From positions 1 through 25,943 of the forward strand of contig JAJRZD010000040.1 in the NCBI GenBank assembly GCA_024275415.1: a stretch of DNA of 25,943 nucleotides, written 5' to 3'. How positions within the stretch are numbered: the stretch's first letter is position 1; the number at the start of each line of letters is the position of its first letter. The translations under genes were made by a program, and so were the position numbers. Below are positions 1-4,312 of this stretch, piece by piece. The notes below the pieces were generated by a model. That model made no database searches. It saw only the letters and a program-made list of their open reading frames with translations, and was not told where the DNA came from. This DNA is from an archaeon (GTDB lineage Archaea > Asgardarchaeota > Thorarchaeia > Thorarchaeales > Thorarchaeaceae).

Positions 1-363
1 AAAGAGGAAGAGGACCTCTTCTGGATAACGGATTTTGAGAGAGAGTTCTATGACAGAGAAGATCCTGAGCGGAAAGGACATTATCACAACTATGACCTAT
101 TCTATCCCAATGGATATCACGAGGCTTTGTCGGGTGGTGAGAGAGATATCGAATACGACATCCTTGTGCGGAAGCTGAGGGAGCGTGGGCAGAATCCAGC
201 CGAGTTCCACCCCTATCTCGAATATGCAAAGAATGGGATGCTATGGCCTAGTGCAGGTGGGGGGCTGGGCGTGGAGCGATTGATCCGATTCCTTACGAGG
301 AGGGAGCATATCCGCGAAGTGACCTTGTTCCCAAAGGTTGTCGGTGAGCCTGTGGTCTTTTGA
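1..363 (+). CDS. asnA: Archaeal asparagine synthetase A (AsnRS/AspRS-paralog, AS-AR type), C-terminal part; 5'-truncated by the window
   Basis: Frame 1 is open from base 1: KEEEDLFWITDFEREFYDREDPERKGHYHNYDLFYPNGYHEALSGGER...SAGGGLGVERLIRF...FPK. The REFYDRE, NYDL and SGGER motifs and class II aaRS motif 3 (GxGxER) match the Pyrococcus-type asparagine synthetase. Confidence 0.85.
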   Translation, partial: KEEEDLFWITDFEREFYDREDPERKGHYHNYDLFYPNGYHEALSGGERDIEYDILVRKLRERGQNPAEFHPYLEYAKNGMLWPSAGGGLGVERLIRFLTRREHIREVTLFPKVVGEPVVF

Positions 364-1454: not shown

Positions 1455-1856
1455 ATGGTAGTTCACTCATCGATTGCAGGAAGATTTAACACCGATTTAA
1501 CTAAGAACGGACAAGAGGTGGTTCCTATCCAAACTGGTTTGATTGACCCGGACGACATAATCCTCATCAGTACCGAAGCGCTGATTGTGGTTGGTCTCTT
1601 TCTTGCTGTAGTTCTCGCATATCTTGTACAGAAACGCCATGCGAAGATAGCCACTGGCTGGAATCTTATCCTACTTGGACTGTTCTTCTTGTTTCTCCAT
1701 GCCACCTTTGATATGTTAGATACCTTACAGATTGACGATTTAATAGTAGATATCCTTCAAGTCCTAGATGGTTCGACATTTGTTATCGGGTTAATCATGT
1801 TTGCTATTGGCATATACCGGATAGCGGACTTTGGTGCGAAGAAATGGGGGTTGTAA
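1455..1856 (+). CDS. Small membrane protein with 3 predicted TM helices, paralog B; true start may be GTG at 1518
   Basis: Three hydrophobic stretches (EALIVVGLFLAVVLAYLV; WNLILLGLFFLFLHATF; STFVIGLIMFAIGIY). It aligns with the next gene. Confidence 0.75.
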   Translation: MVVHSSIAGRFNTDLTKNGQEVVPIQTGLIDPDDIILISTEALIVVGLFLAVVLAYLVQKRHAKIATGWNLILLGLFFLFLHATFDMLDTLQIDDLIVDILQVLDGSTFVIGLIMFAIGIYRIADFGAKKWGL

Positions 1857-1859
1857 CAG

Positions 1860-2228
1860 ATGCAGGACCTACAGATCGACTTTCATCCACCTGACGATAT
1901 ACTTGGGTATACAAAAGCATTCCTTGACGCTGGAGCTGCAGTGATGTTCTTTATTGTACTGATTGTCATTATCTATGCTCGGAATCGCTATCCAGTCATG
2001 GAACGAAATAGAACCTTTTTGCCATTGGTTCTCTTTGCAGTGATGGGCTTCATCAGTACGGTGATGGATGCCTACGATGAGTGGTTCTGGTTCAGTCCCA
2101 GTGCATTCTATAACACCATCTGGAAACCTATCAGGCTCTCTCTCTTTCTGATCGGAATCTTCATACTAATCATCGCGTTCTACCAATTCTATGAATTCTC
2201 GCAACGTCTATTCGGAGAAGAGAATTAA
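1860..2228 (+). CDS. Small membrane protein with 3 predicted TM helices, paralog B'
   Basis: Three hydrophobic stretches (AGAAVMFFIVLIVIIYA; FLPLVLFAVMGFISTVM; LSLFLIGIFILIIAFY). Starts 3 nt after the previous stop; its TAA overlaps the next ATG (TAATG at 2226-2230). Confidence 0.8.
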   Translation: MQDLQIDFHPPDDILGYTKAFLDAGAAVMFFIVLIVIIYARNRYPVMERNRTFLPLVLFAVMGFISTVMDAYDEWFWFSPSAFYNTIWKPIRLSLFLIGIFILIIAFYQFYEFSQRLFGEEN

Positions 2229-3127
2229 TGGATAACCTAGCAAAAACCGTGTACATTCTCCATCTCGATGGGACGCCTGTCCTCCGAGTTGACTTTGACC
2301 ATAACGCTACTGATAATTCGGATGATTTCTTTGGGCTCTTCAGTGGGTTCTCAAGTGCCATCAACACCTTTGTGAAAGAATTAGGGCATAAAGAGATAAA
2401 ATCTATCAGCGTAGGCGATGGCGTTCTGGTCTATAGTTCCCGTGAGCCATTGCTTTTTGTTGTTCATTCCACGAATGAAAGATACGAACAGCTTGCAAAG
2501 CTCATAGTGAAACAGATCGAATACGAGTTCATGGAATCCTATAGTGAGGTTCTCAACTCTGACAATGCATTCGTGCTCCATGATTTCTTCAAACCATTTG
2601 AGGCGACAGTGATCCACATCCACGACACTCTGAAGAGCCTCCATTTACATCATCCAGACCTTTTGGAGTTCCTACCAAGCTTCATCCCGTTGTCTGCACT
2701 GTATGAAGTGCTAAATATGGGTCTTGATGTGATTGAAGGTTATCCCAATGATACAATCAAAATAGTCCGGCAGCTTGACAAGTACTTCACACAAGAGAAT
2801 GATTACGAGATTGCTTCTGTAGCATTAGGACGATATTCTGGACACATGATTGCCAGAAAACGATTCAAGAATGAGCCTGTCATCGACCACGATAAGGTTC
2901 TCAAGCTGCTGAATGAGATTTCAGTGGTGAAGTTCGACTCCTCACAGGAAGTCTTTGATTTTCACCTTTGCCCAATTTGCCGTGGAAAACATGCAGGACA
3001 TCACATCTGTCATTTCTTCAGTGGATTCATAGAAGGCGCTCTGGACAATCCGGGCATTGACGTTGAAGAGATAACATGTAGGGCGAGCGGAGATTCGTCA
3101 TGCAGCTTTAAGTTGCATCGAATATGA
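2228..3127 (+). CDS. Longin/roadblock-like + V4R (Bet3/TRAPP-like fold) fusion protein; paralog A'
   Basis: Longin-like VYILHLDGTPVL ... LFSGFSSAINTFVKELG..EIKSISV; V4R region LGRYSG, CPIC, ICHFFSGFIEGAL, VEEITCRASGDSSCSF. Collinear with 521..1438. Confidence 0.8.
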   Translation: MDNLAKTVYILHLDGTPVLRVDFDHNATDNSDDFFGLFSGFSSAINTFVKELGHKEIKSISVGDGVLVYSSREPLLFVVHSTNERYEQLAKLIVKQIEYEFMESYSEVLNSDNAFVLHDFFKPFEATVIHIHDTLKSLHLHHPDLLEFLPSFIPLSALYEVLNMGLDVIEGYPNDTIKIVRQLDKYFTQENDYEIASVALGRYSGHMIARKRFKNEPVIDHDKVLKLLNEISVVKFDSSQEVFDFHLCPICRGKHAGHHICHFFSGFIEGALDNPGIDVEEITCRASGDSSCSFKLHRI

Positions 3128-3184: not shown

Positions 3185-3373
3185 TCAACCGCGAACTCGA
3201 ACGCCATGAACTTTCTTGTGAGCCCATTTGTACTGACGGAGTCTGCTTGAGGCACCAAATCCACAAGCTGCGCATTTCTTGTGTCGGACATGATATGATC
3301 TTCTTCCGCATCGTCTACATCTGATATGATGAGGGTTGTTCTTCTTGCCTTTCGAAGGGGTTCCTTTTCCCAT
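3185..3373 (-). CDS. rpl37e: 50S ribosomal protein L37e
   Basis: [10 protein letters not shown]..., zinc ribbon CRRC/CAAC, GFG.SSRLRQY.W; directly downstream of lsm, as is typical in archaea. Confidence 0.97.
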
Positions 3374-3379
3374 CAGTTT

Positions 3380-3652
3380 CTACTCCGTTTTCTTAGCGCT
3401 CTTTGGCGGGGGACTTACTATGACAACATTGTCCCCGCGCACGATGATCGTCTTGATTGATTCAACAGTTTCCTGTTTGGTTTCGGGGTCAATCGCAATC
3501 TCTTCGGCATCTTCAAGAATGAGATTCAGGTGTTGATCATATCCCCGAAGCTTTCCTTTCAGCTTTCTCTGCCCTTTTAGTTCCACCAGAACTTGAGAGC
3601 TTAGCGACTTTTGAAGGAGTTCCATAGGTCTACCTGTGTTCAAGAAATTCAC
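3380..3652 (-). CDS. lsm: Sm-like archaeal protein (Lsm/SmAP1)
   Basis: Sm1 motif (VLVELKG..KLKGKLRGYDQHLNLILEDAEE) and Sm2 motif (IIVRGDNVVIVSP). Confidence 0.95.
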   Translation of the reverse strand: MNFLNTGRPMELLQKSLSSQVLVELKGQRKLKGKLRGYDQHLNLILEDAEEIAIDPETKQETVESIKTIIVRGDNVVIVSPPPKSAKKTE

Positions 3653-3802
3653 CAGAGAATCTCATTCGAGAGCATACGGCCCCCGATGTTGGCGCTAGTC
3701 ACCGGACTGGACTTAAAAAGCTGACGATGAATCCGTCATTTTCCTTTTCAGACCGGGCAACCTTCGGTGACTTCAAAAGGAGGATGTCCGATATCATATC
3801 TG

Positions 3803-4312
3803 ATGCCAAAGATTGAGAGAATCAAAAAGCGACATCTGTTGAAGCGAAAACAACAGAAAGCTGAAATACAGCGGATTGAGCAAGGATTGGGCGTCAAAGT
3901 CAACATTGATGATAAGACCCAATTGGAAACGGGAGTTCTGGATGACGGGACTCGTGTGCTATTGTATGGAAGTGAGATCCTATTCTTTGAGAAAGACAAG
4001 AGATTCTTTCCCACACTGCACGCTCTTCTAAAGAGTATGGTTTCGGTTCCGAAAGTCACCGTTGACATGGGTGCAGTTCGCTTTGTCGTCAATGGTGCAG
4101 ACATCATGAGACCTGGCGTGGTTGCAGTTGACGATTCTGTCAGAGAGAACTCTGTTGTTGCCATAGTGGATCAAAACCATGGCAAACCTCTTGCAGTGGG
4201 CATCTCCAAAATGAATGCCGAGGAGATGTGGGCCTCAACCAAGGGGAAGGTCGTCCTATCGATCCATCATGTGAATGATCATCTGTGGGATTTCACGAAA
4301 GGCCAGTCTTAG
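3803..4312 (+). CDS. PUA-domain RNA-binding protein (Tma20/MCT-1-like); start moved to ATG 3803
   Basis: FFPTL...PKVTVDMGAVRFVVNGADIMRPGV...KPLAVG...KGKVVLSIHHVNDHLW is the pre-PUA + PUA signature. ATG 3803 gives the typical basic N-terminus MPKIERIKKRH. Confidence 0.9.
   Translation: MPKIERIKKRHLLKRKQQKAEIQRIEQGLGVKVNIDDKTQLETGVLDDGTRVLLYGSEILFFEKDKRFFPTLHALLKSMVSVPKVTVDMGAVRFVVNGADIMRPGVVAVDDSVRENSVVAIVDQNHGKPLAVGISKMNAEEMWASTKGKVVLSIHHVNDHLWDFTKGQS

Follow-up and report, generated by a model that had tools for sequence, protein, structure and literature searches.

A paired three-helix membrane module linked to longin-V4R genes in Asgard archaea, with candidate relatives in bacteria and in histidine kinases

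Two small membrane proteins, B and B', encoded next to each other and beside a longin-V4R gene in Asgard archaea, appear from their sequences and those of their relatives to represent a previously undescribed signal-input membrane module. The module has a clear signature although no Pfam model describes it, and it is found in both bacteria and Asgard archaea, free-standing as well as fused to kinases. We put the probability that B and B' form a split receptor or coupling device for their longin-V4R neighbour at about 60%. A split receptor had been suggested in an earlier note on this DNA, made by reading the sequence alone. That suggestion gains weight from the finding that the same three-TM (3-TM) module fronts HisKA/HATPase and PAS proteins, but has to be amended: the acidic residues that it placed within the membrane are predicted to lie at the outer membrane interface.

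Organization of the locus

The stretch of DNA analysed here (the window) is 25,943 nucleotides long and comes from a Thorarchaeaceae genome of 3.5 Mb in 127 contigs that is 93% complete. All of the open reading frames reported earlier, and every motif quoted for them, are present in the sequence as described (table 1). The stop codon of B lies 3 nt ahead of the start of B', and the stop of B' overlaps the start of A' in the sequence TAATG. The start of B itself is uncertain, because its first residues are not conserved and its orthologues begin near a GTG codon at position 1518. Initiation at this GTG, which has a purine-rich stretch ahead of it, would yield a protein of 112 aa that matches the length of the orthologues; the first 21 codons from the ATG (window 1455-1520) are unconserved and were modelled poorly. 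Downstream of the module, at 3185-3652 on the minus strand and 3767-4312 on the plus strand, are ORFs whose translations resemble ribosomal protein L37e, Sm-like (LSm) and PUA-domain proteins. These are not kept beside the module in other genomes.

Table 1. Features of the locus, numbered by window position.
Feature	Position	Strand	Evidence
Asn/Asp-tRNA synthetase, C-terminal end	1-363	+	ORF list
A: second longin + V4R copy, 305 aa	521..1438	+	Pfam V4R above cut-off
B: 3-TM membrane protein, 133 aa from ATG 1455	1455..1856	+	ORF, hydropathy, AF2, orthologues in 30 Asgard loci
B Glu41, predicted outer start of TM1	1575..1577	+	invariant in 30/30 B
B motif FDMLDT, residues 85-90, predicted outer end of TM2	1707..1724	+	D86, D89 and T90 each 30/30
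B': paralogous 3-TM membrane protein, 122 aa	1860..2228	+	ORF; adjoins B in 30/30 loci
B' motif MDAYDE, residues 69-74, predicted outer end of TM2	2064..2081	+	E74 29/29, D73 27/29, D70 22/29
A': cytosolic longin + zinc-type V4R/TRAPPC3-like protein, 299 aa, third gene of the module	2228..3127	+	Pfam, AF2, Foldseek

Relationship between B and B'

The earlier reading of B and B' as distant paralogues is not apparent from simple comparisons: pairwise BLASTP yielded no link (E 0.12), and hhalign of narrow profiles, built from close homologues only, scored 1.5%. Broad profiles, for which B and B' were gathered from 30 Asgard genomes of several families, gave a score of 97.4% (E 1.5e-11) over 103 columns, with the FDMLDT motif of B falling exactly on the MDAYDE motif of B'. 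Controls with reversed or column-shuffled profiles gave P values of 0.05-0.49. On this profile evidence B and B' are true paralogues and old duplicates, as proposed. The contrary view, that they share no more than TM composition and lie together by chance, could appeal to the failed BLASTP and narrow-profile comparisons but is refuted by the broad-profile match with its clean controls, by motifs that stay in register, by adjacency in 30/30 loci and by trees that mirror one another, and we give it almost no credence.

A quick maximum-likelihood tree of 88 modules, whose resolution is limited by an alignment of 115 columns, places the bacterial forms together with the kinase-fused metagenomic proteins in a clade apart from the Asgard forms (SH-aLRT 98). 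B forms one clade (99) and so does B', save for two long-branched members, and the order of sub-clades is identical in the two. This mirroring fits a single early duplication, in which one Asgard gene would have given rise to B and B', followed by co-divergence of the pair.

Membrane topology and conserved residues

Both proteins were said to span the membrane three times, and hydropathy analysis identifies three TM segments in B and three in B'. The AF2 model of B, based on a 30-sequence alignment (mean pLDDT 84), likewise has three helices, at residues 32-61, 69-89 and 95-130, while the first 30 residues are poorly predicted. The loop between TM1 and TM2 is basic, with an average of 3.0 Lys plus Arg per sequence in B and 4.1 in B'; acidic residues predominate in the N-terminal tail and in the TM2-TM3 loop, which carries 5.9 Asp plus Glu in B and 3.8 in B'. 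These positive-inside counts place the N-terminus outside and the C-terminus inside, an orientation that is also required by the kinase fusions described below, in which TM3 leads into cytoplasmic domains. Both observations speak against the earlier supposition that the acidic residues are embedded in the membrane. The carboxylates are instead predicted to sit at the extracytoplasmic interface, the acidic motif marking the outer end of TM2 rather than lying deep in the bilayer.

To describe conservation we used 30 orthologues of B and 29 of B'. In B, residues E41, G75, D86, D89, T90 and G119 are invariant, and D34, G47, G68, W69, F85, G112, I123 and W131 nearly so. In B', the invariant residues are F30, P45, E74, K89, L103 and F110, and position 23, the counterpart of E41 in B, is Asp or Glu in 29/29 sequences. 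The D-x-x-D motif that had been pointed out as common to both proteins is thus kept in their homologues, strictly in B (30/30), but in relaxed form in B', where D70 is retained in 22/29 sequences (Asn in seven) and D73 in 27/29 (Gly in two). A histidine one helical turn before the first Asp, also remarked on earlier, does exist in B as His82 and is present in 24/30 orthologues (Lys in the other six); it is not a feature of the family, however, being absent from B' and from all other branches. Overall, the best-conserved regions are the outer motif with its loop, together with the C-terminal cytoplasmic tail.

The module can be recognized by a signature comprising a Glu at the outer start of TM1, [KR][KR][YFH]P after TM1, GW before TM2, [FM]-D-x-x-D-[ET] where TM2 reaches the outer side, and glycines spaced along TM3. 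The TM1 Glu, [KR][KR][YF]P, GW, D-x-x-D-[ET] and the spaced glycines of TM3 are kept in all branches. The TM1 position is Glu in 17/17 of the bacterial forms and 5/5 of the kinase-fused forms discussed below, and over the acidic TM1 position and [FM]DxxD[ET] the counts are 16-17/17 and 5/5, respectively.

A few B' proteins depart from the common plan. Those of Asgard family f17 (L023 1829-2359 and L026 949-1479) and P0044 have approximately 55 extra N-terminal residues that form two more hydrophobic helices, giving five TM segments in total, and in this lineage D73 is replaced by Gly. Three metagenomic relatives of B' (P0032, P0035 and P0038), which resemble the f13 type, carry cytoplasmic C-terminal tails of 70-120 residues, nearly all of which are Asp, Glu, Thr, Ile or Val.

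The longin-V4R partner and gene context in Asgard archaea

The third gene of the module, A', encodes a protein in which the V4R domain (PF02830) scores 37.2 bits against a cut-off of 31 bits (3.2e-9) and the zinc pattern C248, C251, C261, E281, C284 and C292 is invariant. The AF2 model (pLDDT 85) consists of an N-terminal beta-beta-alpha-beta-beta-beta-alpha (E-E-H-E-E-E-H) domain and a C-terminal helix/sheet domain. Foldseek matched the N-terminal domain with the longins Sec22b (PDB 1ifq, TM-score (TMt) 0.73), VAMP7 (4afi) and zeta-COP, and also with roadblock/LAMTOR proteins; the C-terminal domain matched Bet3/TRAPPC3 and the crystallized Thorarchaeota TRAPPC3 (2j3w, 7yh3 and 7yh2). The longin assignment derives from the fold, as the Pfam model Fuz_longin_1 scores 19.1 bits, below its cut-off of 26.1. 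Sequence comparison of A' with solved chains yielded no match, the crystallized proteins included, and no recognized output domain was found in A'.

B is followed by B' in 30/30 Asgard loci, and wherever the flank is present it carries a longin-V4R gene in the same orientation, usually after the pair (B-B'-A) but ahead of it (A-B-B') in two lineages. Across 17 loci examined over 15 kb, only B, B' and the longin-V4R gene are conserved, with no conserved gene for a GTPase or a regulator nearby. The combined profile found the module in 50 of 400 Asgard species genomes, 46 of which carry exactly the adjacent pair, including five single-contig genomes. The module is therefore accessory, being absent from approximately 350 of the 400. 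Viewed from the partner's side, 47 genomes have a full-length A-type match; 44 of these have an adjacent B/B' pair, two are cut by contig ends and one (G308) lacks the pair. In the latter, a 100%-complete genome, the full-length longin-V4R gene (L072 2489-3286, G308:C5) has no B/B' within 2.5 kb and none was detected elsewhere, while the complete module is present in its sisters G307 and G309. Homologues of the pair do not run independently of longin/V4R genes, a link that reaches as far as the bacteria, and they match no known housekeeping family.

The earlier note spoke of a longin-V4R pair to which B and B' could signal. A' does belong to the ancestral module, but A is a duplication confined to a single genus (g1). 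The two copies are 46% identical (E 3e-99), both have a V4R domain above the Pfam cut-off, and the upstream copy is restricted to the window, L002/L034 and, in part, L004, all from this genus. The genome has a single B/B' pair. It also has four further V4R-like genes (G000:C127:68726-68917, C57:19884-20012, C123:17339-17512 and C71:28104-28238; ORFs of 177-235 aa), which are distant from A and A' (12-33 bits) and unlinked to any 3-TM gene.

Stand-alone forms in bacteria

When 1.84 billion representative proteins were searched exhaustively by HMMER for matches to the combined profile (E <= 1e-3), only 69 clusters emerged, most of which are B or B'; no natural fusion of B to B' was seen among them. 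The family also includes stand-alone forms of 104-119 aa that score equally on the B and B' profiles. A scan of GTDB species genomes located 17 loci of this kind, all bacterial, in Anaerolineae and other Chloroflexota, Methylococcaceae including Methylomonas, Desulfopila and Poriferihabitaceae. One of them is in a Methylomonas MAG and six more are in Methylococcaceae or unclassified proteobacterial MAGs.

In 16/17 of these loci, the 3-TM gene directly follows, on the same strand, a gene for a protein of 230-330 aa belonging to one family. Of four members checked, two attain the Pfam V4R cut-off, and hhalign aligns the family with the V4R half of the Asgard proteins at 99.6% (E 1e-23), including the CPxC and C..F.G...E..C.A.G...C.F patterns. 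The Asgard profile gives these bacterial V4R proteins 52-90 bits, whereas the remaining V4R genes of the Thorarchaeaceae genome itself obtain 12-33 bits, and the reciprocal comparison agrees. Together, the subfamily scores and the 16/17 linkage show that V4R and 3-TM genes form an evolutionary unit common to bacteria and Asgard archaea, so that in two domains of life one V4R/TRAPPC3-like subfamily comes with a membrane partner. The bacterial proteins have a short N-terminal part of unknown nature in place of a longin domain, and the longin is, by this comparison, an Asgard addition to the V4R protein.

Other genes adjoin the bacterial pair in some lineages. In Methylococcaceae, a protein of 560-620 aa with PycTM (Pycsar effector-like TM), DUF3616 and phytase-like regions precedes V4R and 3-TM (L052 3529-5220, with equivalents in L053, L054, L056 and L064), and in L050, L055 and L058 a choice-of-anchor I protein follows them. 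Neither neighbour is conserved across phyla.

Fusions to kinase and PAS domains

In some metagenomic proteins and in Asgard archaea, the 3-TM module forms the N-terminal membrane part of a signalling protein. Among the metagenomic examples, the module is followed by HisKA, HATPase and REC domains in P0081, by HisKA and HATPase in P0083 and in the fragment P0073, by HisKA_3 and HATPase in P0084, and by PAS in P0086 and P0072. P0086 (317 aa) ends in a coiled coil that includes the sequence VGRELRIKELK. Asgard family f11 (L069 and L070) provides one protein of 744 aa with three PAS domains, HisKA and HATPase behind the module and another of 348 aa with HisKA and HATPase. The kinase-fused relatives have no V4R domain and keep the same motifs.

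Profile comparison of the kinase N-termini scored 97.9% (E 4.8e-13) with B, 96.1% with B' and 99.1% with the bacterial forms, values that are inflated because the kinase set was chosen by similarity. Across all four branches (B, B', bacterial forms and kinase N-termini) scores were 96-99%, with P values of 0.004-0.27 for reversed controls. Given this selection, and given that the kinase-fused relatives are few and each near threshold (whole-library E 1e-5 to 6e-4), the link to kinases draws on both the shared motif columns and the scores. With the N-terminus of P0083 as query, a word-indexed search returned only P0083 itself. One candidate at a similar level, P0087 (E 9e-4), proved to be a CD20-like repeat protein and was discarded as a false positive.

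Comparison with known families

The earlier note did not recognize the family of B and B', and neither do the databases. No Pfam or NCBIfam model reaches threshold on B, on B', on their 59 relatives or on the 3-TM part of the fused forms. This includes the Pfam membrane input domains (MASE, 7TMR-DISM_7TM, HisKA_7TM, 5TMR and others), none of which attains its gathering score; the best sub-threshold matches, 7TMR-DISM_7TM (0.019) and HisKA_7TM (0.0029), each occur in a single protein. B and B' are not sensor histidine kinases themselves, since they end 9-13 residues after TM3 and HisKA/HATPase_c domains occur only on their distant relatives. Foldseek comparison of the B model with the PDB gave nothing at E <= 0.001, and VIA-align wide gave a best Z of 10.7, which lies within the helical-bundle background and is uninformative. 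Neither B nor the A5 profile matched any sequence in the PDB, and the ESM Atlas offered only small archaeal clusters without names. Two weak similarities were set aside: matches of the B profile to proteins of approximately 400 aa in family f11, which are CaCA-type antiporter-like (L031) and were judged to reflect chance TM similarity, and DUF981, which matched seven members weakly but neither B nor B' of the Thorarchaeaceae genome.

By position, the closest analogue is the N-terminal membrane domain of the ethylene receptor, ETR1_N (PF25487), which is also a three-helix, N-out/C-in input module ahead of a dimeric histidine-kinase transmitter, with key ligand-binding residues in TM2. B and B' are not members of this family. 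Weak matches were seen in 4/59 B/B' members (best E 0.0075), but in the Thorarchaeaceae genome B' scores 10.8 bits against a cut-off of 27 (E 1.5) and unrelated places score higher. ETR1 binds copper through Cys and His ligands in TM2. TM2 contains no conserved Cys in either B or B', and the only His in question is the partly conserved His82 of B; in place of a Cys/His copper site, the signature here consists of the TM1 Glu and the D-x-x-D at the outer interface. B and B' also differ from ETR1_N in being free-standing and paired with a V4R protein.

The cytosolic partner has better-known relatives. Structures of Asgard TRAPPC3 (PDB 7YH2 and 7YH3) were solved by Tran et al. 2024, who also noted one Heimdall longin+TRAPPC3 fusion (PMC10933270); their paper nowhere uses the word 'transmembrane'. 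A' resembles these proteins in having both folds and the cysteine zinc pattern, but it differs in belonging to the V4R subfamily that is shared with bacterial 3-TM-linked genes. V4R domains with zinc cysteines also act in signal transduction, as the input of the phenol sensors XylR, DmpR, PoxR and MopR, and as the V4R-like MetOD1, a receiver-associated domain in methanogen two-component systems (PMC5847659). In those cases a single soluble protein joins V4R to AAA+/HTH or REC domains, whereas here V4R is fused to a longin (Asgard archaea) or a short N-terminal part (bacteria) and is genetically tied to a membrane module.

Two further systems invite comparison. Intramembrane-sensing kinases such as BceS, which works with BceAB, place perception and cytoplasmic transduction on separate polypeptides encoded side by side. 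The arrangement of membrane partner and cytosolic transducer on neighbouring genes is the same here, but the partner in the Bce system is an ABC transporter and the transducer a kinase, in contrast to a 3-TM pair and a kinase-less cytosolic part. The TRAPP complex acts as a Rab GEF with several Bet3-type and longin subunits, two folds that A' combines in one chain; there is no conserved GTPase gene in the 17 wide loci, and the bacterial relatives are without a longin.

A possible mechanism and its alternatives

Histidine kinases are dimers, so a module fused to one must function as a pair with six helices in all, in which TM3 extends into the signalling helix. The product of the single bacterial gene would probably pair with itself, and B most likely with B' to give a six-helix heterodimer. 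This heterodimer would present on its outer face a conserved ring of carboxylates, drawn from D34, E41, D86, D89, D99 and D105 of B and from D/E23, D/N70, D73 and E74 of B', with an aromatic belt and K89 also contributed by B'. On the inner face, the basic TM1-TM2 loop and the tails (YGAKxWG in B and FSxRLFGE in B') would be the only surfaces open to a cytosolic partner, and the conserved loop and C-terminal tails probably dock A'. A stimulus from outside would then pass through TM3 to A'. The charge pattern suggests that this stimulus could plausibly be a cation, a proton or a cationic ligand.

The strongest competitor to a split receptor holds that B:B' senses nothing and only tethers the longin-V4R protein, for example as a GTPase platform in a proto-TRAPP-like assembly. 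The conservation of the C-terminal cytoplasmic tails and the combination of longin and Bet3/TRAPPC3-like folds in A' are what one would expect of such an anchor, and eukaryotic TRAPP does act on membranes (PMC10933270). An anchor has no need, however, of the outer acidic motif and loop, which form the most conserved region of all. Nor does this explanation sit well with bacterial relatives that pair with longin-less V4R proteins, with homologous modules that feed histidine kinases, or with the lack of a conserved GTPase gene near the 17 loci, and we consider it improbable, if still worth keeping in mind.

A less probable alternative is that the membrane pair serves as a carrier or loader, moving a lipophilic or membrane-derived molecule to or from the V4R pocket instead of relaying a signal. 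Hydrophobic ligands such as phenols and palmitate bind in the pockets of V4R and TRAPPC3, and cavities are present in Thor-TRAPPC3 (PMC10933270), which would suit a hand-over of this type, as would the strict linkage of V4R and 3-TM genes in two domains of life. The kinase-fused relatives keep the same motifs without a V4R, and six short helices offer no polar pathway besides the interface carboxylates, so we judge it unlikely. A further idea, in which B and B' are subunits of a small cation channel or transporter, the ring of carboxylates forms its selectivity filter and the V4R protein regulates it, is very improbable: the outer acidic ring and glycine-rich TM2 and TM3 are suggestive, but the membrane core has no conserved polar residues, fusion to kinase transmitters is typical of sensors rather than channels, and no fold match to channels rises above background.

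Returning to the split receptor, a broader and distinctly more speculative scenario is that V4R and 3-TM constitute an ancient kinase-less prokaryotic signalling unit, in which a dimeric three-helix sensor with an outer carboxylate ring would report a cation or other cue to a zinc-V4R protein. Asgard archaea would then have added the longin domain and split the sensor into a heterodimer, so that at least this 'TRAPPC3-like' eukaryotic signature protein may have begun as the read-out of a membrane receptor. With one V4R subfamily tied to a membrane partner in bacteria as well as Asgard archaea, the Asgard longin-TRAPPC3 fusion has to be read differently: it looks less like a mere precursor of a vesicle-tethering complex and more like the cytosolic part of a prokaryotic receptor. 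If the scenario is true, it provides a possible route by which Bet3 and longin modules first became coupled to membranes. The kinase-fused relatives, for their part, constitute a ready-made reporter with which to search for the stimulus.
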